Shown one piece after another: positions 13,117 through 64,000 of a stretch of DNA of 64,000 nt. Position 1 is the first letter of the stretch. Each line of letters begins with the position of its first letter. The notes below the pieces were generated by a model, which was not told the origin of the DNA, did no database searches, and saw nothing but the letters and a program-made list of their open reading frames with translations. Source of the stretch: Candidatus Sumerlaeia bacterium (GTDB lineage: Bacteria; Sumerlaeota; Sumerlaeia; SLMS01; JAHLLQ01); contig JANQSL010000171.1 of assembly GCA_028284075.1 (NCBI GenBank), positions 26,378-90,377 of the forward strand. The letters are read 5' to 3'. The position numbers were made by a program, and so were the translations under genes.

Positions 13117-15390
13117 ATGAAGGTAACGGGTGAGTCTGAAAGGAATCGAATGATTTCCAAAGTTCGTTTATTCCTGTTTCTCACCGTTGCCTTTGTTCCC
13201 GGACTTCTTTCGGCCGAGAGTGAAGAAATCACTGTCTGGGCAATGGGGGAGGAGGGTAACCGGATTTCGGTTCTTGCTCAAGCGTTCGAAAGTGAAAACC
13301 CTGGTGTCAGAGTTGTTACTCAGGCCATTCCCTGGAACGGTGCGCATGACAGACTGCTTACTGCAGTGGCAGGAGGACTGACACCGGATGTCGTCCAACT
13401 CGGAACAACCTGGATTCCGGAGTTCGCTGAAATCGATGCATTACTGCCACTCGATTCGTTGATCGGGGAAGGCGAAATCGGTGCAGAGCGTTTCTATCCC
13501 GGATCATGGAAAACGGCCCTTTATGATGACAGGGTCGTTTCCATTCCCTGGTACGTTGACACACGTGTTTACTTCTATCGGTCTGACCTTCTGGAAGATG
13601 CCGGGATCGGAGAGTTTCCCCGCACATGGCAAGGCCTGGAAGAGCTCGGGGAGGCTCTGACACGTGATGTGGATGGAGACGGAACCTTCGACAACCATGC
13701 CTACGATCTGCTTGCCCGCGACTATGGTCTCTCAGTGGCACTGTTCCGACAGGCGGGCGCTTCGATTTTCGGGCCGGATGGAAAAAGCTCTGTTGCATCC
13801 GTCGAAGGCATTGAGAGTTTGAGTTTTTTCCGTTCACTGGTGAGTCGCGGTTATGCACCGGGACCGTCCGGAAGGCAGATTGATCCGATTCAGGACCTGC
13901 GGACGGGGTATGTGGCGAGCTGGATATCAGGTCCGTGGATGGTTGAACTTCTGCGTACCCAGGCGCCTGATCTCAATGGCAAATGGATGGTTGCCGGGAT
14001 GCCGCGGGGGAGGCATGAGTCATCGTTTCTTGGCGGTTGCAATTTGGCGGTCTTCCGAAACTCAACCCGTCCGAATCTGGCACAAAGGTTTGTCGTCTTC
14101 TGTTCCCGACCGGACATTCAGCAATTGTGGTTCTCCGCGACAGGTAATTTGCCTGCGGTGCGCGATGCGTGGAACGCTGAAGAACTTGAGAATGATCCGA
14201 TTTGGCGGGTTTTCAAGAATCAACTCGAATCAGCGGAACCTCCGCCGCCTCTTGTCTCATGGGCCGCAATGGAAAGCGCGATCGAGAATTCCGTTGAAGA
14301 TATGGTGATCAATGAACGCAACCCGGCGGAAACGGCGCGTGAACTGGCTTCAAGACTGGATTCACTTTATCCGAAAGGCCGTCGCGGCAAGGGTAACCTC
14401 TCTGGCCATGGCACGTTGGTGTTGGGAGGGTTCTTCGTCTTTTTTGCGGTGATTGTCGCTTTGTGGGTTCTTGCTCCGGCTCTGCTTGACAGAACATCGA
14501 GCTGGAGACGAGTCGGAGTTTCAGCGATGTTTCTCGCACCGGCAGCACTACACTTGATTGTGTTCATGCTGGTGCCATTGATGATCTCCCTCGCACTCAG
14601 CTTCACGAACTATGACATTTACTCCATTGGCGATTGGAGAACGACATCCTTTGTTGGTTTCGAAAACTACCAAAGGCTTGTCGGAGATGCTCGTTTCTGG
14701 ACGTCGTTTCTCAATACCGTCTATTTCCTTGCTGTGGCGGGGCCATTAACCATTATTGCGGCACTCACGGCAGCGATTATTCTCAATCGAAGGTTTTCAT
14801 CACGGGTTCGGACATTCTTTCGTTCGTCTCTTTTTCTTCCGGTGGTTACTCCTCTTGTCGCGGTGGCGGTTGTATGGAGGTGGCTTCTTGCACCGCAGAG
14901 CGGCCTGATCAATCTCGGACTGGAATGGATCGGCATCGAAGGGCGTGCGTGGCTGACGGATCCGGTTTGGGCAATGCCATCGTTGATTTTGATGGCGGTG
15001 TGGAAAAACGCCGGCTACAGTATGGTGATTTTCCTCGCCGGACTCCAGACGATTCCCCGCACCTTTTATGAGGCGGCTGAGGTCGATGGCGCCGGACCGA
15101 TGCGTCGCTTCGTCAGCATCACTATTCCGCTTTTACGCCCCACTCTCCTCTTCGTCGTTGTCGTGACAACGATAGGTTACATGCAGCTCTTCGCCGAACC
15201 GTATGTCATGACGGCGGGTGGTGGACCGAGCGACCGGACACTATCGATCGTTCTGTATCTTTATCAGGAAGGCTTCAAGTTTTTCAATCTCGGCTATGCT
15301 TCGGCCGTTGCTTACACACTCTGTCTTGTCGTGGCGGTCGTGAGCTTCCTCCAGATGATTCTCGCGGGTTCCCGCGAAGGGAGAATATAA
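13117..15390 (+). CDS. Fused sugar ABC transporter solute-binding protein and MalF-like permease
   Basis: SBP part WAMGEEG...PDVVQLGTTW...IPWYVDTR, in frame with permease FVGFENY...LAGLQTIP..YEAAEVDGA (EAA loop). Start may be 13150. Confidence 0.9.
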   Translation: MKVTGESERNRMISKVRLFLFLTVAFVPGLLSAESEEITVWAMGEEGNRISVLAQAFESENPGVRVVTQAIPWNGAHDRLLTAVAGGLTPDVVQLGTTWIPEFAEIDALLPLDSLIGEGEIGAERFYPGSWKTALYDDRVVSIPWYVDTRVYFYRSDLLEDAGIGEFPRTWQGLEELGEALTRDVDGDGTFDNHAYDLLARDYGLSVALFRQAGASIFGPDGKSSVASVEGIESLSFFRSLVSRGYAPGPSGRQIDPIQDLRTGYVASWISGPWMVELLRTQAPDLNGKWMVAGMPRGRHESSFLGGCNLAVFRNSTRPNLAQRFVVFCSRPDIQQLWFSATGNLPAVRDAWNAEELENDPIWRVFKNQLESAEPPPPLVSWAAMESAIENSVEDMVINERNPAETARELASRLDSLYPKGRRGKGNLSGHGTLVLGGFFVFFAVIVALWVLAPALLDRTSSWRRVGVSAMFLAPAALHLIVFMLVPLMISLALSFTNYDIYSIGDWRTTSFVGFENYQRLVGDARFWTSFLNTVYFLAVAGPLTIIAALTAAIILNRRFSSRVRTFFRSSLFLPVVTPLVAVAVVWRWLLAPQSGLINLGLEWIGIEGRAWLTDPVWAMPSLILMAVWKNAGYSMVIFLAGLQTIPRTFYEAAEVDGAGPMRRFVSITIPLLRPTLLFVVVVTTIGYMQLFAEPYVMTAGGGPSDRTLSIVLYLYQEGFKFFNLGYASAVAYTLCLVVAVVSFLQMILAGSREGRI

Positions 15391-51620: not shown

Positions 51621-51765
51621 CCAGTAGAAAACAACTCGAGAGGGGAGGCTGTAACCAGTCTCTCTTCTTCCTGTTTCAGGAAGTAACTCGTATCTTGACG
51701 TTGTTGCCGTGCGAGCGGCAGCGGTTAATTCCACAATCGAGTCCGACGGATGGAAGAGATCGCGC

Positions 51766-53970
51766 ATGTTTCAGCAAACAGTTTCGACGTTACTTCTGAC
51801 ATTCTTGAGTGGAGCGGCAATGGCTTCACCTCTTCAGCTGAAGGAGTCGGGATTCACTTATCTGGTTGATCCGGAGACCCTTGCTCTCGAGCGGGTCACT
51901 GAAGCTGAAACCATCAGCCTTTCCTCGTCTCAGGTACTGCGCAAAGTGGATAATCTGGAAGTGGAGGAGGGGCAGGCATCGTGGGATTTCCCGGAGGAAG
52001 GACTCGCGATTGAGTGCCGCATTCTCGCATCCGGTGCCTTTGAGCTGACGGCGCGTGGCGAGCCCGGCTCGCGCTTTCACTGGCCCGCGGGAGAGGTGGA
52101 GAAGAGCGCACGGATTATCCTCGCACGGAATTCGGGACTTCTGGTTTCGCCGGATGATCCGTTTTGGAGAGACATTCTTCTGGCGACAGAGTGGGATACT
52201 CTTGAGAAAATGTCGATGCCGGTCTTCGGTTTTCTTGATGGGAAGCATGGTGTTTCCTGGATGACGTCTTCCGTCTTTCGCAATGAGCTGGATTTTGAGG
52301 AGAGTGGATCCTCCTCCAGCCTGAGTTTCACCTTTAGTCACCATTTTCATCCCAAGTCGTCCGAAAACGAAATCACTTTCAGAGTCATCGTGGATGAGAA
52401 CGCCTCTCCCATTAGTCCGGCTCTTTACTACCGAGAGTGGCTTGATGAGACGGGCCGCGTAACAACGCTGAAACAGAAGATGGAGACGGTCCCGCAGGTG
52501 GAGCGTCTTCCCGGCGCACCTCATGTTTATCTCTGGGGAGGATCCGCTGTTTCCTGGCTGGATATTCAACCCCGTGCATTGAAGGAATTTTGCACCAGTC
52601 TTATTTCAGAGATGGGTGATCCCGAGTCGGTGGCGGCGCGCCTCCGCGCACACTTCAGTGGTGAGCAATGGAAACAGGTTGAGCAGTGCGTGCAGGAGGA
52701 ATGGCCCCACAAGTATATGAAACAGCAGATCGCCGCGGGTATCTCTGCCGCCCTCGAGTCGACGGAGTTTGGAAGTGATTCGCCGGACCCCGCGAATCGC
52801 CTTCAGGAAAACGCCGCGATCCTGGTGGAAGCCTTTCCGAATGCCTTCCTGCCGCCGGAAGTGTGGGGTAACGGCGATTCCATCAAGATGCTGAAGGGTC
52901 TGGCGGACCTCGGCTTTGCGAATCTCAAGCTGTGTTTTCCCGGTTGGGAAAGTGTCGAGCAACGACCCTGGGTGGCCACAGACGCCGACAACAGGGGTTG
53001 GTTGATTGGTACTTACGATTCATATCACAGCATTCACAATCCGGCCAGTGCCGGGACGGATAACACCTGGACGACAGCTCAGATGACTTCGGAGCTTTGG
53101 GAAAACGGTGGGGTCATGCAAGAGGACGGCACATTTCTAAGGGGATTTAAGGGGATCGGGAGAAAACTGAATCCTCTTGCAGGCCGGGTGTTCTATGAAG
53201 AGCGCACCAGTGCTATTCTAAAGTCCGTTCCTTTCAATTATTACTTCATCGATTGCGATGCGTATGGCGAAGTATATGATGACTATCACCCGGAACATCC
53301 GAACTCGATGGAGGAAGACGCGGAGGAACGAACGCGTCGGCTTGGCTGGCTGGCCAGCGAGAAGAATGTCGTTGTGGGTTCGGAGGGAGGGAATATTTAT
53401 GCCCTCGAGGGAGTTCATGTTCTCGAGGGCGTGTTCGGTCCGTACTTCGGTTGGGGAGATGAGGATCTGATGAATCCGGATTCCGATTTCTTCCGAGGTA
53501 AATACTACCCTCCCGACCAACCCGGGATCAACTTCAAGCCCGTTCCCATGAAGGAGAAATACCGGAAGCTCCACTACGATCCAGCCGTTCGCATTCCTCT
53601 GTTTCAGGCTGCCTTTCACGATGCGGTTATAACGACACATCACTGGTCGAACGACCGGTTCAAGTATCCCGAGATGACAAAAACTGTCGAGTTGTTTGAG
53701 CTGCTCTGGATGTGCCCACCGATGGTTCACCTCAATCTTCAAACTCTCAAAGAGCGCGGAACCAGTCTCAAACGGCACTGCGAAATTTGGTCACCCTTGC
53801 ATCGCAAACTCGGATTTGCCCGCATGACAGGTTTCCGTTATCTGACAGACGACCACCTGGTCCAGGAGACAACCTGGGAAGATGGAACGCGAATCGTCGT
53901 CAATTTTGGAGAGAGCGGCTATGAAGACAAAGGCGTTGTTGTCGAGAGCGGTAAAGCGCTGGTGCAGTAA
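51766..53970 (+). CDS. Secreted GH129-like glycoside hydrolase
   Basis: Signal peptide AMA|S; L.GAPHVYLWG, GTYDSYH, FIDCDAYGE.YDDY, GSEGG, PLFQAAFHD..ITTHHW. Confidence 0.72.
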   Translation: MFQQTVSTLLLTFLSGAAMASPLQLKESGFTYLVDPETLALERVTEAETISLSSSQVLRKVDNLEVEEGQASWDFPEEGLAIECRILASGAFELTARGEPGSRFHWPAGEVEKSARIILARNSGLLVSPDDPFWRDILLATEWDTLEKMSMPVFGFLDGKHGVSWMTSSVFRNELDFEESGSSSSLSFTFSHHFHPKSSENEITFRVIVDENASPISPALYYREWLDETGRVTTLKQKMETVPQVERLPGAPHVYLWGGSAVSWLDIQPRALKEFCTSLISEMGDPESVAARLRAHFSGEQWKQVEQCVQEEWPHKYMKQQIAAGISAALESTEFGSDSPDPANRLQENAAILVEAFPNAFLPPEVWGNGDSIKMLKGLADLGFANLKLCFPGWESVEQRPWVATDADNRGWLIGTYDSYHSIHNPASAGTDNTWTTAQMTSELWENGGVMQEDGTFLRGFKGIGRKLNPLAGRVFYEERTSAILKSVPFNYYFIDCDAYGEVYDDYHPEHPNSMEEDAEERTRRLGWLASEKNVVVGSEGGNIYALEGVHVLEGVFGPYFGWGDEDLMNPDSDFFRGKYYPPDQPGINFKPVPMKEKYRKLHYDPAVRIPLFQAAFHDAVITTHHWSNDRFKYPEMTKTVELFELLWMCPPMVHLNLQTLKERGTSLKRHCEIWSPLHRKLGFARMTGFRYLTDDHLVQETTWEDGTRIVVNFGESGYEDKGVVVESGKALVQ

Positions 53971-55995: not shown

Positions 55996-56071
55996 GCCTC
56001 CTTAGCTCAATTGGTAGAGCAGCGGACTCTTAATCCGTTGGTTCTAGGTTCGAGTCCTAGAGGGGGTACCA
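55996..56071 (+). tRNA. tRNA-Lys(CTT)
   Basis: Full cloverleaf: GCCTCCT/AGGGGGT, GCTC-AATTGGTA-GAGC, GCGGA-CTCTTAA-TCCGT, CTAGG-TTCGAGT-CCTAG, encoded CCA. Confidence 0.97.
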
Positions 56072-56077
56072 CTCATT

Positions 56078-56737
56078 TCAAACAACTTGCGCAATTCGCC
56101 GTTCAGGCTCCGATTGCCGAGGTTGCAAAAAGTTGTAAATTGCATCCTCCAACGGCCGGATCACCAACTGGCGAAACAGTGCAATTTGCTTCTCCAGTGC
56201 GCGTTCTTCGCCTGAGGTGTTCGAGGCTAGGCGCGGAACGTAGTGTCGATCTGTTACGCTCTTTGGAGCATGGCCAATATACTGCTCCCAGACGGTTCCC
56301 TGAATTCCCTCAGCCGTGGCGAATGAGGGAAGACAGTTCCGGAGATCCTTCGGTGCCCAAGAGCAGGTCGGATTCCACGCGCGAAGCGCCTTACGCATCC
56401 GTGTGCTGTAGGATGTGAAGTCCGCGTATGGAAAGCCGCGTTCACCCACAACCACGACGTCGGTCTCCTTTGCAGCACCTTCCTCTGCCCGGGATTTCGC
56501 ACACAGCAATGCATCCTGCACCTTTTTGCAGATCGGTATGACCCGATTGCGGTACTCGTTTTTGACCTCGCCCGAGATCTCGACAAGACCGCGCTCCAGA
56601 TCAACCCTGTCCCAGGTCAGGCGCAAAGCCTCCAGAAGCTGGAGACCGGCAGGCCCCCTTTCCTCAAACCTGTACGACCCCGCCTCCTTGACCGGCTCGG
56701 GAAGAACACTCCAGACAATATAAGATAGTGGCTTCAA
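56078..56737 (-). pseudogene. N-terminally truncated tyrosine recombinase/integrase
   Basis: AGLQLLEALRLTWDRVDL, VKNEYRNRVIP, PKDLRN, YIGHA...TDRHY. No core-binding domain; abuts the tRNA 3' end. Confidence 0.8.
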
Positions 56738-58005
56738 TCTACGGGAGAATCGAAATCAATCGTGGCAAACTAGAACACTTGATCCGTAAGCTTGAAATTG
56801 GGGTCGAAGAGTGAAACACCGGTTCATCATCACTGCGGCAATCCTCACGGCCTTGATTCGAGGGAGGGTCACTGCCCCGGGGCGTTGAATCATGATCGAT
56901 CTCTCCGATCATCAGGGCTGGGTTGAAATCAGGGAAAATGGGATCATCACGAGTGAATGGCGGCCCAGTGACGGAGAAGCCTTTCAGATTTTGACTGACC
57001 TTCTGGGAATCATTGGAACAGATTCCCTCAAATACACGAGACTGATCACCTGACTTATGGCGAAGAGATGTTCATGGAAAACGTTCAGAGAGAAGTGGCT
57101 GCCCTGTTCTCATTCCTGTCGATGAAGGTGAGCACCTGAGTCACGCCGTCCGGACCCGGAAGCGGATCATGGTTTCCGGCCACGGTAAAAGTACTTTCGC
57201 ATTGGCGTAGGGGTCATCTAGCTATGATACAGCCCTGATGTTGCCACTACCCTTGGAATGTTAGTTTTCCATATTCCTGGCCTTCCGGGGAACGTTTCCA
57301 ATCGGCCGATTTCTGAGGGCGCCCTGTTGCCTAGGGAGCAGGCCGACGGATGGGTCATCCGCAGGCTTGCGAGTTCGATTATGGAGCAGGAGGATATCTG
57401 CTTGATTGCAAAAACGAGTGCCATTGTTCGCGAAGGGTGTTGCATTGAGCAAAGTCTTCGGGATGCGGATTGTAAACCGAAATACAAATGCGATGGCATC
57501 GCATCACCCATGTATTTCTCCTTGACCATTCCATCAGAATCACAAGACTAGCCTTCAATCCGTCTACACTCGAAAACATGTCGGATGGAGGGAGTTGTTC
57601 AGGAGACGCAGGTATTGCCTGATGCTGCTCCTATATATAGGGCTTCATGAGCCGATGCCTTAAGCTGGTTTCGGCTCACAATCGGTACATTTTTTTGGCG
57701 ACAACGTCATGAGGAGGGCACCGTGTTCCATCCCGAGGGTATTCCTTTGTCCAGAGCTCTCGTTCTTTCTTTTGGGAAAACTCCAGGTTTTGTCCTGCTG
57801 ACTGCTCTTCCTGATAGTGGCCCATCCGGGTCACATCACGAAGTGCAGACCCGGTGCTTCAAGAGCGAAGGTTTGAGTAAGCGGACGGCGGTATGTTGAG
57901 GTGCGTGAACTCTCCGTGGAGCGGTTTGTTTTACTGGGAATCATCAGCCGGCAACCGAATTTGAATATGTCACCGTTTTCGACCGCATTTGAAGGGATCA
58001 GGGTA

Positions 58006-61000
58006 ATGAGATCATGTATTGTTTTCATTGGAAGGCATTTGGTGTCGGGACTGTTTTTCATCATGGCCGCCTCCGTGGCCATGGCAGGAGGAGCGGGCGA
58101 TCCAGGGGTGTTTCAGTTCAGCGCGACGGAGTACTTTGCCTACGAATCCGCCGGTTCGGTAACCGTTACCGTGGAGCGCGTAGATGGCTTCGCGGAGGAA
58201 GTTGACATCGACTACGCGACGACTGATGGCACCGCCACGGCGGGCTCCGACTACACAGCGCAATCCGGAACGCTCTTCTTTCCGGAGATCATCGAGGATC
58301 CAATTCCAATCACAATTCCCATCACGAACGACACGACCGCGGAGCCGGTCGAGACATTCACGATTTCCATTTCGAATCCGACCAGTGGTGCAACGCTTGG
58401 AAGCCCCGCAACGGCAACGGTTCATATCGTTTCGCCGGGGAGATACCTGACAGTCGAAAATAGGGAGAAGTACGCATATATCCTCAATGAGGACCTGGGG
58501 GCTACGGAATCTCCTCAGATCCACGACCTTGTCGCACTCAAATCTCCTGACTGTGCAGATCCGGCATCCTGTGACGACGAATGGTTCGCTGTCGTTGGAC
58601 GCAAAGATGATGGTCCTTTCTTTGGGATCTATCGTGATACCGAAGTCGCGGCCAGCTTTGAGATCTATACTGATGGATTTGCAGGGCTCGTTGACGACAG
58701 TGATCCAGCGGTTGCCTATTCACAGTTCGCACCCAAGACAATTTCCTACGTCGGGGATGGTCGCTTTGTTATCGCCGGAGCGTCGGAGCGATCCACCGCA
58801 CCGACATCCCGGGTGATCGCCGTATCCTATCGCTACTCTTCGTCAGTTGTGACACGTGTTTCGACGATCGATTTGCTCGGTGTGAGCGTAACGGATCCAA
58901 TCAGCGATTCTGTTGCCTTTGTGGCCGACCAGTCTTGGTTTGGTGACAATGTTTATGTCTCACATGGGACCCATGCCGGGTCCGCTTCCGCGCCCACTTC
59001 ATCCACTTCGGGCTGGGCAAACAATATCAGCAAATTGACCGTCAGCGCAACGGATGGAACTCTCACGCTGTCCAATACTCTGCTCGGAAACACGGACCAT
59101 GAAATTATCGATCTCGTGGCAAGCGTCGATCGGCTTTACCTGCTGACGGATCTCGTGGAGCCCGACAGCGTTACAACCCCCGATACAAACATCTTCCTCG
59201 ATCGCTATCAGGCGAGCAACCTGTCCTTTCTGACTCGTTCGCCCATTACGGATCGATCCATCTCCGGCGACAGACGACTGATCTCGACGGATACGGACAT
59301 CGCAGATCGTGATGACGCGTCCATCACGCTGGACGGTGATTCACCCTTCGTCGCGTTTGCCGTACCTGTCGGAGTGGTTGCAGGCGATGACCTTTTGACA
59401 GTAACAGCTTCAGCGGACTGTGACCCTGATGGTGTATCAAGCGGTACCATTCCACTCAACGTCGATCCTGAATTCTACAGTACCTCCACTGACGAGGAAT
59501 ATCGAATCGTCGCTCTGAAACTTTGTCCTGACGATGGAAAAGCAGTTACAGGAAAGGGCATCCATCATCTGGTGTCTGACAAGTCGACAGCTCCACACCT
59601 GGTCGATGGCAGCATTCGCTTGGATTTGTTACCTTGGATCGATCCTGGCCTTTCAATGTTTGGGCTGATTCTTCAGAATGGAAGCGATCACCCCCGACTC
59701 ATCAACGTCGACTCCAGTGGTCTCGTCTTCGCCGAACGCACGCTCTATGGTTTCAAGACCTATGGCGACGGAGCAGAGGGTGATCACGGAACGGTCAATC
59801 TTGCTCGAATACCGGGCTCAAAGACGATGTGGATTTCCGGCCTTGTGAATGGCACAGACACCGATGATCCGGATGGAAGAGTTGCGACCGGGGAGAATGA
59901 TTATTCACTCGGCAGCATGTTCTTTTCCGCAATCAACGATCTGCAGGATGGTGAGACGGACGCCCCAGTGGGCGCGTCATTGCCCGACACTTATGGTCTG
60001 ATCACCGTCCGTCCGTTGAACCTTCAATCCCCAAAGGTTTTGGAAAGACTTCCCGACGGATCGGAGCAGGAGATCTTCATGTTGGGATCATACTGGGCTC
60101 GTTTTGATGCTTATTCAGACGTCCCTACGAATTTTGACGACCCCTGGATCGATCCGGACGACGGTTTTTTCTACGAAGGCGGGCACTACCTTAACCTCCA
60201 GCGCGAGTTTCTGACCCGGCCTGAGTACGTGCAGTTGGCCAGTCCGGGTGACCTGATCGGCAGGGTGGCGGACGGTTCCTGTGATGACCTGGACGGTGAT
60301 GGATTCTGCGACGACGCCGAACCATGCGTGGATAACGATGGCGACGGATTCTGTGATGAGGACGGTGCAGGGAACGGAATTCACGTCTCCGATACACTGG
60401 ATGCGATGCTCGACGCCATGGAAGAACATGAGATGCGCGCAGTATACATCTTCTTCTCCATGATTGATCTCATCGACCGTGGCAATAATGATCTTAACCA
60501 GACCTACATGGAAGACATTTATGACTTTCTGCGGGAGCTTCAGGACCGGGCAAATTCAGAACCGGAGAAAGGAATTTACCTCTACGCCACGTTTGACCCG
60601 CTTGGACTTCCGTTCAAGGTCAACCCTGGAGGAGCGGCGGACTGGATTGTGACGGACCCCGGCGGCTGGAAGACAATTGACCGGGGTCTCTGGCGTTCTG
60701 CGCCGTGGATGAGTGAGGATGCTGTCAATACATTCACAAAAGGATATTCCGCTCCACTGGGAGGTTTCCCAAACCTTCTAACCCTGCAGAATTTTATCTG
60801 GATGTCAATAAACGATCAGATTGAGGTGAGCGAAGGCGGAACGGTCTCGGCGACGCTGGATCTTAGTGAAGGTATGGACACAACCACATTGGATTTTCTC
60901 ACTGAAGCGACACTAAACAGCCTCTACTGTACTGAGTTCATAGCATGCAGAGATGATCCCGGCTGTGATCCCTCCACCGTGGCTGTTCCAACGCTAAGCC

Positions 61001-64000
61001 CTGGTTTGAGAAGTGAAGCCGATCAGATTGTTCTAGGTGGTATGGAGCAACAGATTGAGCTATGGGAACTCTTCCTGGATGAACTGGGGTCCATCGCCCT
61101 TCAAAACGGTCGCCCGGAAGTTCTTGATCGGTTGATTCTCTCCGTGGGAAGTGAACCACATTTTCAGGCGTACTTCACACCGTTCGCGTGTTATCCCTTC
61201 GGTCATATTACCGGGGAGTTGGTGGACAGCTGTGGCTCGACTGCCAACGATGACGTCATCATTGATTACGGAGAATCTGTCCAGACGACCTTGCGGCTTA
61301 CGGATAATCCTGCCGATACATTAAACGTTACGATAGGAGGAGACTCTCACGGGTCCCTCTCTGACCTTGTCAACAGGCAGATGCTGGCTGATGCGATAAC
61401 CGTGCGCTGTATGAATGCAATTGGCGATGCAATCCACGCTTTTCAGTTCGAGGACCTGAACACCGGACTTCAATATCCCAATGAGCTCCTCGTGGGAACT
61501 TCCCTGATTACACCCACTCGACAGCTTCAGCTAATGAGTCTGTCTCGGACTTTGCCTGATCCTGCATCCCAGTATGATTTCCCCTTTGTATTGAGTTCGA
61601 GAATTGCAGATGGTACACTGCTTGTCGATAGTTTGAATGCACCCATGTACTCCCATTCACTTAATCGAACGAGTCTGGATTTCATCGGGCACAATCACAA
61701 TACTCTGAGAAACCCGGGAAGAGGCGATAGTGGAGGGGTTCCGTTCGAATCTCTGGGTGTTCAGACGGCGCCTCCCCGTTTCGATAGTGCGGGAAACTCA
61801 CGAGGTCTGAATGTGGCGGTTACAACAATTCCACCGGGCGGATACTTTATCAGTCATGATCACCTCATTGATGGAGTACGCGACAATCAACTCGCGTCCT
61901 CCGGCGCCCTGGCGGCGCTGGGAGAAAAGCCCTTCTTCTCGGCTGAAATTGCAGTCTTTCCTCAACTCGCGGATCGCTTGATAGAGGAGGCACGAGCTCG
62001 CTCCACCGTTCTGAGTGAGCTGAATTGGGTCGTCGCCGATTATAGCGATCTGGATGATGGTACATATGCAGCGGAGGACTTCAGTCATCTTCAGTCCAGC
62101 CTGTTCGATACATTGGGTTATTCCTACTTCACACGATGGGCATGGGACTTCGGCATGCACGCGAAAACTGAAGAGCGAAGAACATTGGAGTATGTTAAGG
62201 ATAATCCAGGGAGCACCTTTGCATACGAGTTCATTTCCTCAATGCTTACAACCTCACAAGGGGCGGTCTCCCCAGCTCTTCAGACGATGTCCATTGCGAA
62301 TCGTGCAGGTGCCGGAGACGATGGCGCCGGAATTCTGGTATCTTCATGGCTCACGAAGGCCGACAATTTCCTGCACATCCTTGAGGATCACGATGATTGC
62401 GATCCGACCACAACGGACCCCGACCCCTCGCCGTTTACAGCCGACACTCCCATCACAATTCACTTCTACCTGGCGACGGATCTGTTGACCGCGGGATCAA
62501 ACGAATATGCAGCTCCTGTCTTTACCCTTGATGGAGTCATCATTGCAAACGACCCCTGGGTTCAGGTCACAGGCAATGAATGGGGAATCGCTGCATCCAA
62601 ATTCATGCTCGGGGACAACCTGTCAGATAGTCTGACAGAATACGGAATCACGGCTGACATCACCGACTTCGCGTTGCGGGTGGACCTTGGAACTCAAAAG
62701 GCGATTGTCCGGGCCTATCCGGTTCGAGACGAATCGAGTTTGCCGAACGCCGTCATGGGTTCCATCGAGCCTCAGACAGTTTATACCGGATTGACCGTTG
62801 CTTCGGCGAACGACGAGATCCGGATCTTGAATACCAATCCGCGCGGTGCCGGAGCGGCACGAATCCGGATTTCAGTTCAGGGTGGCGGCGAGAATGTCGC
62901 AACAGTCCGGGTTCCTCCCAAGACTGTTTTTCGATCTACAGTGGCAGCGCTGCTCCCAAGTATAACGGGTGCTGCAACGCTGGATCTGGAGTCTTACCGT
63001 GTTCTCCCCGAGTTGGTCAGCAATCAACCCGTCGCGGTCGATCAAAGTGGAGCCGCAATCAGCAGTTGGCTGGTTGGTGATGAGTTGACCTATTTCCAGA
63101 ACAATTATCCCATCAATCTGGAAGCGGTTCCAGTTACTGTCGATGTATTCTCCACCCCAAACGTTGACGAACTTCCAGGATCCAGGCCGGTGAATGCGAC
63201 ATTTGCAGAGAATGGGCAGACCTTCGGAGGAAGTATTGTGAGTGGCAGTGCCGTACTTGGTTTCGCAGACGATCTGGCGGATATTTCCGATGATACGGTT
63301 CAGGGCGAGGCTCCACCAGAGTGTCAGTTTGCCCCAAAGGAGGTCAGGTATTTTGCTACTCACTTGGACCTTGGAGAAGCTGTTGTCTTTAGCGCAGTAT
63401 CCGATCAATCGCTGTGCGTCTCGCTTGCCAAAAAGAACGGATTGGAATACAATTACCTCTTGGGAACACATGTCTATGGTACAGCAGTAGCAGAAGATGT
63501 TACGACCACCTGGATTGCGGACTCAGACAACACCGAGGTGGTCTGCATTCTTCAAACCAATTCCTTGGACACAACATGGCAAGCCGAAGCAGTGGTGGTC
63601 AGGGTAGCGGACTTCTCCAATTCTCGTGTTTACCAGGGCTCACTCACAAGTCTCCATATCTCCTCATCGAATTCAACATCGCTCGGTGGCTGGAGAACGG
63701 AGGGATACCCCAAGACGCGAGAATGGTTGTGGGGAGGACGCAGCGACTACTATACTGGCTCGGTTCTCATAACGGGAGTGCAGGAATCTGTGGAGCTGAA
63801 TATGGCAGGATCCGTCTATGGCTCCAATCTTGGTCTTCAATGGAGGGACGAAGCCGGGCTGGGTGGTGAGTGGCGCAATTCGACCTATGGGGATCCTAAT
63901 GCATCCAACTTGACCAATTTGGTTTTTGCTGAACACCCAATGAGTCAGAATGATCAGTTTCTTCTCACCCTGAACTGGACTCCGCAAGCTACATCCAGCG
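58006..64000 (+). CDS. Giant secreted multidomain protein (>1998 aa, runs off the window): Calx-beta, Ca-binding Asp/Cys repeats, putative clan GH-A barrel
   Basis: Hand translation of frame +1 from ATG 58006 found no stop up to 64000. MRSCIVFIGRHLVSGLFFIMAASVAMA|GG; FQFSATEYFAYESAGSVTVTVER...TDGTATAGSDY (Calx-beta). Confidence 0.88.
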   Translation, partial: MRSCIVFIGRHLVSGLFFIMAASVAMAGGAGDPGVFQFSATEYFAYESAGSVTVTVERVDGFAEEVDIDYATTDGTATAGSDYTAQSGTLFFPEIIEDPIPITIPITNDTTAEPVETFTISISNPTSGATLGSPATATVHIVSPGRYLTVENREKYAYILNEDLGATESPQIHDLVALKSPDCADPASCDDEWFAVVGRKDDGPFFGIYRDTEVAASFEIYTDGFAGLVDDSDPAVAYSQFAPKTISYVGDGRFVIAGASERSTAPTSRVIAVSYRYSSSVVTRVSTIDLLGVSVTDPISDSVAFVADQSWFGDNVYVSHGTHAGSASAPTSSTSGWANNISKLTVSATDGTLTLSNTLLGNTDHEIIDLVASVDRLYLLTDLVEPDSVTTPDTNIFLDRYQASNLSFLTRSPITDRSISGDRRLISTDTDIADRDDASITLDGDSPFVAFAVPVGVVAGDDLLTVTASADCDPDGVSSGTIPLNVDPEFYSTSTDEEYRIVALKLCPDDGKAVTGKGIHHLVSDKSTAPHLVDGSIRLDLLPWIDPGLSMFGLILQNGSDHPRLINVDSSGLVFAERTLYGFKTYGDGAEGDHGTVNLARIPGSKTMWISGLVNGTDTDDPDGRVATGENDYSLGSMFFSAINDLQDGETDAPVGASLPDTYGLITVRPLNLQSPKVLERLPDGSEQEIFMLGSYWARFDAYSDVPTNFDDPWIDPDDGFFYEGGHYLNLQREFLTRPEYVQLASPGDLIGRVADGSCDDLDGDGFCDDAEPCVDNDGDGFCDEDGAGNGIHVSDTLDAMLDAMEEHEMRAVYIFFSMIDLIDRGNNDLNQTYMEDIYDFLRELQDRANSEPEKGIYLYATFDPLGLPFKVNPGGAADWIVTDPGGWKTIDRGLWRSAPWMSEDAVNTFTKGYSAPLGGFPNLLTLQNFIWMSINDQIEVSEGGTVSATLDLSEGMDTTTLDFLTEATLNSLYCTEFIACRDDPGCDPSTVAVPTLSPGLRSEADQIVLGGMEQQIELWELFLDELGSIALQNGRPEVLDRLILSVGSEPHFQAYFTPFACYPFGHITGELVDSCGSTANDDVIIDYGESVQTTLRLTDNPADTLNVTIGGDSHGSLSDLVNRQMLADAITVRCMNAIGDAIHAFQFEDLNTGLQYPNELLVGTSLITPTRQLQLMSLSRTLPDPASQYDFPFVLSSRIADGTLLVDSLNAPMYSHSLNRTSLDFIGHNHNTLRNPGRGDSGGVPFESLGVQTAPPRFDSAGNSRGLNVAVTTIPPGGYFISHDHLIDGVRDNQLASSGALAALGEKPFFSAEIAVFPQLADRLIEEARARSTVLSELNWVVADYSDLDDGTYAAEDFSHLQSSLFDTLGYSYFTRWAWDFGMHAKTEERRTLEYVKDNPGSTFAYEFISSMLTTSQGAVSPALQTMSIANRAGAGDDGAGILVSSWLTKADNFLHILEDHDDCDPTTTDPDPSPFTADTPITIHFYLATDLLTAGSNEYAAPVFTLDGVIIANDPWVQVTGNEWGIAASKFMLGDNLSDSLTEYGITADITDFALRVDLGTQKAIVRAYPVRDESSLPNAVMGSIEPQTVYTGLTVASANDEIRILNTNPRGAGAARIRISVQGGGENVATVRVPPKTVFRSTVAALLPSITGAATLDLESYRVLPELVSNQPVAVDQSGAAISSWLVGDELTYFQNNYPINLEAVPVTVDVFSTPNVDELPGSRPVNATFAENGQTFGGSIVSGSAVLGFADDLADISDDTVQGEAPPECQFAPKEVRYFATHLDLGEAVVFSAVSDQSLCVSLAKKNGLEYNYLLGTHVYGTAVAEDVTTTWIADSDNTEVVCILQTNSLDTTWQAEAVVVRVADFSNSRVYQGSLTSLHISSSNSTSLGGWRTEGYPKTREWLWGGRSDYYTGSVLITGVQESVELNMAGSVYGSNLGLQWRDEAGLGGEWRNSTYGDPNASNLTNLVFAEHPMSQNDQFLLTLNWTPQATSS

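Follow-up and report, generated by a model that had tools for sequence, protein, structure and literature searches.

The window analysed here is a 64,000-nucleotide (nt) stretch of contig JANQSL010000171.1 (positions 26,378 to 90,377, forward strand) from the Candidatus Sumerlaeia bacterium assembly GCA_028284075.1 (4.9 Mb, 275 contigs, 90.4% complete). It ends inside the gene of a giant protein. This protein is encoded by a single open reading frame (ORF) on the + strand, running from window position 57901 to 851 nt beyond the window end (contig position 91228). The length of 2,316 amino acids was counted from the first in-frame GTG; the database copy (P0003) begins 22 codons later and has 2,294 amino acids. 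A candidate start is M36 (58006), with an AAGGGA-like stretch ∼10 nt upstream. The middle of the protein, residues 726-1415, had been proposed in an earlier sequence-only reading to be a highly divergent glycoside hydrolase (GH) of clan GH-A, with its (beta/alpha)8 barrel stretched by insertions. From the analyses below it is tentatively interpreted as a chain of lineage-specific extracellular modules instead. The features of the protein were as follows.

57901..64000, continuing past the window, + strand: giant ORF of 2,316 amino acids, from the first in-frame GTG
58006..58086, + strand: probable Sec signal peptide, residues 36-62 (MRSCIVFIGRHLVSGLFFIMAASVAMA), by reading of the sequence
58099..58431, + strand: Calx-beta domain, residues 67-177 (Pfam PF03160, E 3.5e-23)
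58432..60000, + strand: possible beta-propeller, residues 178-700, a lead from protein-atlas feature matches
60076..62145, + strand: orphan region under study, residues 726-1415 (proposed strands b1 to b8), from string positions and null searches
60271..60372, + strand: acidic, Cys-bearing stretch, residues 791-824 (TSP3_bac and resemblance by eye)
60385..60591, + strand: helix-strand-helix-strand unit, residues 829-897 (b2 and b3), in both AlphaFold2 runs

The Calx-beta domain passed the Pfam gathering score (82.3 bits against a cut-off of 27) and lies outside the region under study. It was the sole curated family match by Pfam across the entire protein, and NCBIfam added nothing to it. Residues 178-700 gave no match in Pfam. 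In a protein-atlas feature search the same residues scored 0.91-0.92 against unnamed clusters and clusters that were partly SBBP (46% of members) or PQQ_2 (20%), and may form a propeller domain missed by Pfam. Residues 791-824 contain two DGDGFCD motifs and four Cys, and resemble thrombospondin type-3 calcium-binding repeats; the TSP3_bac model reached E 1.7, far under its cut-off. The C-terminal ∼260 residues (about 2054-2316; L002:6438-7226 in locus coordinates, past the window end) consist of two tandem repeats of ∼125 amino acids with 43% identity over 126 amino acids (E 8e-32), which we take to be similar to pre-peptidase C-terminal domains; Pfam did not call them. Compared with ORFs of ≥300 amino acids in the same genome the protein was acidic and lysine-poor, at the 96th percentile for Asp, the 95th for Ser + Thr and the 11th for Lys. 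GC content, GC content at third codon positions and codon use of the ORF were at the 5th-8th percentile among the long ORFs of the genome, low yet within range. Positions 57000-62683 were present with zero differences on one Logan contig of run X1 (coral metagenome, probably the source sample), and the region under study is therefore not a binning-assembly artefact. One DNA run (coral metagenome) and no RNA run was listed among the holders of this stretch.

The proposal of a GH-A barrel had been built on nine strings assigned to barrel strands and on two glutamates, one at window position 61153 and one at 61945. All nine strings were located where they had been reported, in the reported order and in one reading frame of the giant ORF. 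The codons of the two catalytic candidates are both GAA and correspond to E1085 and E1349. Strings and candidate residues, all on the + strand, were placed as follows.

Residues 726-732 (60076-60096), +: FMLGSYW (b1)
Residues 837-852, +: LDAMEEHEMRAVYIFF (b2)
Residues 875-884, +: DFLRELQDRA
Residues 891-898, +: GIYLYATF
Residues 1079-1086, +: ILSVGSEP (b4)
61153..61155, +: E1085 in SEP, proposed acid/base, preceded by Ser and not Asn
Residues 1196-1200, +: LLVGT (b5)
Residues 1259-1266, +: LDFIGHNH (b6)
Residues 1341-1351, +: GEKPFFSAEIA (b7)
61945..61947, +: E1349 in KPFFSAEIA, proposed nucleophile (GH2_C block PVLVCEY on PFFSAEI, 9.8 bits)
Residues 1406-1415 (62116-62145), +: GYSYFTRWAW (b8)

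The same order of motif-like strings is found in GH5 cellulases and GH2 TIM-barrel enzymes of clan GH-A, and the hallmarks of the clan were recovered in part. Of those invoked in the sequence-only reading, one was matched at the level of strings and one in part. In KPFFSAEIA the K, P and E are at the proper spacing, with Ala replacing Gly, and the K and P precede the Glu as they do in the GH5 consensus KPLYLGEFG and the GH2_C consensus KPVLVCEYA. The strand-8 Trp hallmark W.W is matched by RWAW, at string level only, within RWAWDF at residues 1412-1417 (10.9-11.4 bits against the GH5 block (T)AYWDF); this stretch is like both AYWDF and IWDWVD near strand 8. The other two hallmarks are absent. 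The Asn-Glu of the acid/base motif NEP (consensus LLNEP in GH5, SLGNE in GH2_C) is replaced by Ser1084-Glu1085-Pro1086, and the strand-6 motif D..S.H.Y is represented by D..GH.H, in which GHNH offers no Tyr for the His-x-Tyr and the Asp is one position out of register. The giant protein further differs from the clan in having no significant profile match, with the barrel itself putative, and in length, with ∼690 amino acids set against ∼270-300 profile positions.

The KP....E spacing occurred in 2.4% of 5000 shuffles of the lysine-poor segment. The ordered pattern [NS]EP...KP....E...W.W, which was composed after the sequence was seen, was absent from 5000 shuffles. When relaxed to [KR]P, the pattern was matched by 3 of the 2394 genome ORFs of ≥300 amino acids: the giant protein, a glucose-6-phosphate dehydrogenase and a PMT-family glycosyltransferase. 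The relaxed pattern was found in no GH-A protein that Pfam detects in this genome. Because the dehydrogenase and the transferase match and recognisable GH-A proteins do not, the motif set is neither sensitive nor specific for GH-A here.

Relatives of the region were sought by several methods. When residues 700-1500 were searched exhaustively with phmmer against 1,835,955,588 representative proteins, a single match was returned at E≤0.001, the protein itself. Word-index searches (lengths 1273-4053 amino acids, residues 700-1500 and 178-2316; lengths 440-1402 amino acids) gave nothing beyond the protein itself. Across 40 related genomes, among them an 80% complete one from the same genus, no match was better than E 0.0099 (14.7 bits); ten weak matches were obtained in these genomes, and the seven best, which were checked, were noise (MacB/FtsX permeases, a flavin adenine dinucleotide (FAD)-binding protein and unannotated ORFs). 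No paralogues of the giant protein were found in its own genome. With no homologues, there was therefore no alignment for structure prediction and none for comparing conservation of the two glutamates. Family searches of residues 700-1500 were equally sparse. Pfam at E≤10, run on four overlapping segments, gave TSP3_bac at E 1.7 alone, NCBIfam gave nothing relevant, and the lowest E values with phmmer against Protein Data Bank sequences were 1.2 and 1.5. PHROGs returned phrog_102 only, at E 0.052, with no stretch passing alone. This endolysin lead (residues 863-961) was dropped; the genome-wide family search missed this place.

Directed tests were run because HMMER filters hide weak matches. 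The Pfam GH2_C and GH5 models, searched over the genome at E≤10, each identified five other places, the giant protein region not being among them. Custom hidden Markov models (HMMs) were built from 15 GH2_C and 9 GH5 regions of the same bacterial class and run with every filter disabled. Both gave the segment -2.2 bits, a score equalled or bettered by 8.1% (GH2_C) and 13.8% (GH5) of 1000 shuffles, and control regions of the giant protein gave the same scores. With hmmalign, one residue was aligned. Since long insertions might break an HMM alignment, ungapped profile blocks were also chained in order, with free gaps between them, and scored. Whole-profile chains gave z values of 0.31, -0.15, -0.51 and 0.29 (500 shuffles each), and 67%-82% of 246 natural 801-amino-acid stretches of the genome equalled or exceeded the segment. 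Chains restricted to hallmark blocks gave z values of 1.78 and 1.58 for GH5 and -1.53 and 0.23 for GH2_C.

The placement of blocks within these chains was then compared with the quoted strings. The optimal chains fell on quoted sites solely at RWAWDF (strand-8 block) and, in one variant, at PFFSAEI (GH2_C nucleophile block). The NEP block was placed off ILSVGSEP in every hallmark chain. The GH5 nucleophile block PLYLGEFGL favoured ELFLDELGS at residue 1056 (11.7 bits), and the GH5 block VLSLHMYAP landed at residue 892, not 1259. As a measure of power, training proteins ranked first in the chain test and untrained GH2-type proteins (contigs C56 and C15) were within the top six in several variants. 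Further large proteins of this genome contain GH-A domains that were picked up at 26-36 bits, so divergent GH-A domains are generally visible in this genome; if the region is GH-A, it would be far more divergent than these. The nine strings are real, and their resemblance to GH-A did not exceed chance in the profile-based tests.

The interpretation to which we lean, tentatively, is that the region consists of extracellular modules specific to the lineage, strung together in a giant calcium-binding exoprotein, and that its GH-A likeness arose by chance. A single GH-A barrel stretched by insertions is most likely not what is encoded. Residues 726-1415 would be the orphan middle of a real, secreted, 2,316-residue multidomain protein whose gene follows a tRNA-Lys gene and an integrase remnant. 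The proposed layout is a signal peptide, the Calx-beta domain, a possible beta-propeller, a region of ∼800 amino acids, ∼550 further orphan residues and the two C-terminal repeats. The ∼800-residue region would be a run of modules comprising the beta/alpha unit at 829-897, acidic loops of calcium-binding type at 791-824, short beta hairpins and helical stretches, and the GH-A-like strings would be chance resemblances within it. The role envisaged is that of an extracellular, adhesin-like protein, stabilised by calcium and serving for binding or as a scaffold; the composition, together with the signal peptide and the Calx-beta domain, suggests export, calcium binding and the binding role.

Giant Calx-beta-bearing bacterial exoproteins and adhesins have a signal peptide, an N-terminal Calx-beta domain, huge size and terminal repeat modules, and are acidic, lysine-poor and Ser/Thr-rich. 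The giant protein shares the signal peptide, the Calx-beta domain, the size, the composition and the terminal repeats with them, and differs in that nearly the whole chain (residues 178-2316) is without a match to a known repeat or adhesin family.

Several observations weigh against this chain-of-modules interpretation. No positive evidence for an adhesin role turned up. In the protein-atlas feature search, the language-model neighbours of residues 700-1500 were GH2_C, GH72, Cellulase-like and GH42, all of clan GH-A, and the ten best family-bearing neighbours shared one clan according to the tool. The control residues 178-700, of similar composition, gave beta-propeller-type neighbours instead; since these residues gave other folds, the GH-A lead is not an effect of composition. 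The GH5 hallmark chains were marginal, being equalled or exceeded by 4.3% and 7.3% of 2000 shuffles and by 8.3% and 11.6% of 492 natural stretches, and some blocks did match at quoted sites (RWAWDF 10.9-11.4 bits with the GH5 strand-8 block, PFFSAEI 9.8 bits with the GH2_C nucleophile block). The alpha-beta-alpha-beta unit at 829-897 looks, in the predicted models, like barrel strands 2 and 3. The window and the genome are also rich in carbohydrate enzymes (GH94, GH1, GH129, glucoamylase-like and pectate-lyase-like), and a barrel split by a large insertion has a precedent in the GH148 enzyme EngU, discussed below.

The models themselves were of low confidence. Single-sequence AlphaFold2 gave a mean predicted local distance difference test score (pLDDT) of 34.5 and a predicted template modelling score (pTM) of 0.26 for residues 700-1500 (run 1), and a mean pLDDT of 38.0 with a pTM of 0.26 for residues 826-1200 (run 2). 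The helix-strand-helix-strand block at 829-897 was the sole part alike in both; its block pLDDT was ∼50 in run 1, rising to 53-74 in run 2. Both models render ILSVGSEP as helix at pLDDT 31-38, to which little weight is given. Foldseek with the low-confidence 700-1500 model gave no match at E≤0.001 and merely short beta-alpha-beta fragment matches. Alignment-based structure prediction cannot decide the matter because the protein is a singleton orphan.

The leading alternative is the barrel itself, in which residues ∼726-1440 would fold into a (beta/alpha)8 retaining glycosidase, very divergent and of clan GH-A type, with E1085 as acid/base and E1349 as nucleophile. Insertions in most of the loops would account for the length, among them an acidic loop binding calcium that follows strand 1, and inserts of ∼150-180 amino acids after strands 3 and 4. 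We consider this unlikely, if somewhat more probable than the remaining alternatives. It would account for the correct order of the quoted strings, for the KP....E spacing that just 2.4% of shuffles reproduce, for the strand-8 and GH2_C nucleophile blocks that come to rest on quoted sites at 9.8-11.4 bits, and for a beta/alpha unit that spans b2 and b3 in both models. It would also suit a carbohydrate-enzyme-rich genome in which other GH-A domains occur within proteins of 959-1,708 amino acids. Its atlas neighbours, all GH-A where the control region gave other folds, scored 0.76-0.77, which the tool declares to be noise level; by its calibration one third of shuffled proteins reach 0.8, and one third also yield ten concordant matches. 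The recognition value for residues 700-1500 was 2101, below the 2300 reached by 91 of 100 known-family proteins. As a weak and in part independent lead, these neighbours agree with the earlier guess from strings, and both may be driven by the same local strings.

Several results weigh against the barrel. HMMs gave no signal, not even under shuffle calibration with the filters off, chain tests were at chance, and the NEP block never settled on SEP. The acid/base Glu follows Ser in place of Asn, and a His-x-His stands out of register for the expected His-x-Tyr. Strands b4 and b8 were drawn as helix in both models, at low confidence. The motif triple is shared with the glucose-6-phosphate dehydrogenase and the PMT-family transferase and with none of the recognisable GH-A proteins of the genome, and among 1.84 billion representatives no homologues were found in which conservation of the glutamates could be followed.

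EngU, as described in PMC5725463, is a metagenome beta-glucanase of GH-A type whose family was unassigned by database models. According to that description it was recognised through manual inspection of the stretches around its catalytic residues, and consists of two weakly GH-A-like halves separated by a CBM4 that is inserted after strand 4, ahead of helix 4. Its two essential glutamates (E239 and E581) are separated by 342 residues, compared with 264 for the proposed pair in the giant protein. Given the spacing in EngU, a long distance between catalytic residues is not itself an objection to the barrel. In contrast to the giant protein, EngU had weak detectable GH42 similarity, homologues, an identifiable CBM4, proven activity and proven Glu mutants.

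In a more specific form of the barrel proposal, residues ∼726-1440 would be the first member, and as yet the only one, of a new glycosidase family resembling clan GH-A, with insertions in most barrel loops (a calcium-binding acidic one among them) and with Ser-Glu-Pro replacing Asn-Glu-Pro. The domain would be carried by a giant island-borne exoprotein of an uncultivated bacterium known from a coral metagenome. This form is doubtful. The replacement would hint at a substrate without the normal 2-hydroxyl contact.

A catalytic domain of another fold, such as an alpha/beta hydrolytic or cell-wall-lytic module in a secreted enzyme outside clan GH-A, was given a similarly low probability. The mixed helix and strand content with its beta/alpha unit is consistent with such a domain, as are two downstream neighbours with SPOR peptidoglycan-binding domains and the joining of glycosidase cores to VanY or M23 peptidases in other large secreted proteins of the genome. 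A neighbourhood is by itself weak evidence. The PHROGs endolysin match (phrog_102, E 0.052, residues 863-961) points in the same direction; it is at noise level, no stretch of it passes alone and the genome family search missed the place. No other enzyme family matched in Pfam or NCBIfam.

That the ORF is non-functional, whether produced by misassembly or decaying within an island, is very improbable: although it is known from one contig and one sample, lacks homologues and lies in the low tail for GC and codon use, 2,316 open codons in 53% GC DNA are unexpected by chance, the protein contains a bona fide Calx-beta domain as well as two internal repeats with 43% identity, and a second assembler reproduces 57000-62683 without differences.

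If the barrel were true, it would represent a new glycoside hydrolase family missed by all profile libraries, with an unusual acid/base motif, from a carbohydrate-degrading uncultivated lineage, and would be relevant to enzyme discovery and to the insertion tolerance of TIM barrels. As matters are, the main lesson is methodological, in that an order of GH-A-like strings convincing by eye was yet not beyond chance in calibrated tests.

The gene of the giant protein is preceded by a tRNA gene and an integrase-family ORF and followed by the genes listed below.

55996-56071, + strand: tRNA-Lys (CTT), possible island integration site (tRNA call)
56078-56737, - strand: integrase-family ORF of 219 amino acids abutting the tRNA (Pfam Phage_integrase, E 2.9e-6, 27.6 bits against a cut-off of 27.1)
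Within L002:7240-15334, downstream of the giant gene: SPOR + TPR protein of 448 amino acids and, on the other strand, SPOR protein of 444 amino acids
Within L002:7240-15334, downstream of the giant gene: weakly YbgF/TPR-like protein of 433 amino acids
Within L002:7240-15334, downstream: RHS-repeat/DUF6531 protein of at least 1,294 amino acids, cut at the contig end

Between the integrase ORF and the giant gene there is a 1.1-kb gap, and GC falls from 0.58 to 0.50-0.55. The tRNA-Lys, the integrase ORF, the gap and the GC drop together mark a likely tRNA-linked island edge. The island probably carries the giant gene, the SPOR/TPR genes and the RHS gene. No repeat of the tRNA-Lys of ≥12 nt was found downstream on the contig, which stops inside the RHS gene. 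Close relatives of the SPOR + TPR neighbour were not found in the genome contig collection.

Two further large secreted proteins of the genome combine glycosidase cores with peptidases. One, of 1,708 amino acids (G000:C150:42116-47239), contains VanY, two PPC domains, Glyco_hydro_cc and Golvesin_C; the other, of 1,098 amino acids (G000:C12:20627-23920), contains GH5, CBM9 and Peptidase_M23. Such combinations of a peptidoglycan peptidase with a GH-A core are a hint of bacteriolytic capacity.

Upstream of the island edge, a GH129-family protein of 753 amino acids (E 2.4e-94) is encoded at 51709-53970, 4 kb upstream of the tRNA-Lys. After its gene come a flavin reductase-like gene and one for a 431-amino-acid protein with weak metallopeptidase-like matches. 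At 13117-15390 one ORF of 757 amino acids contains both SBP_bac_1 and BPD_transp_1, a binding protein fused to a permease, and adjoins GH94, LacI, glucoamylase-like and GH1 genes. The homoserine dehydrogenase encoded in the window has 25-48% identity to relatives across many phyla.

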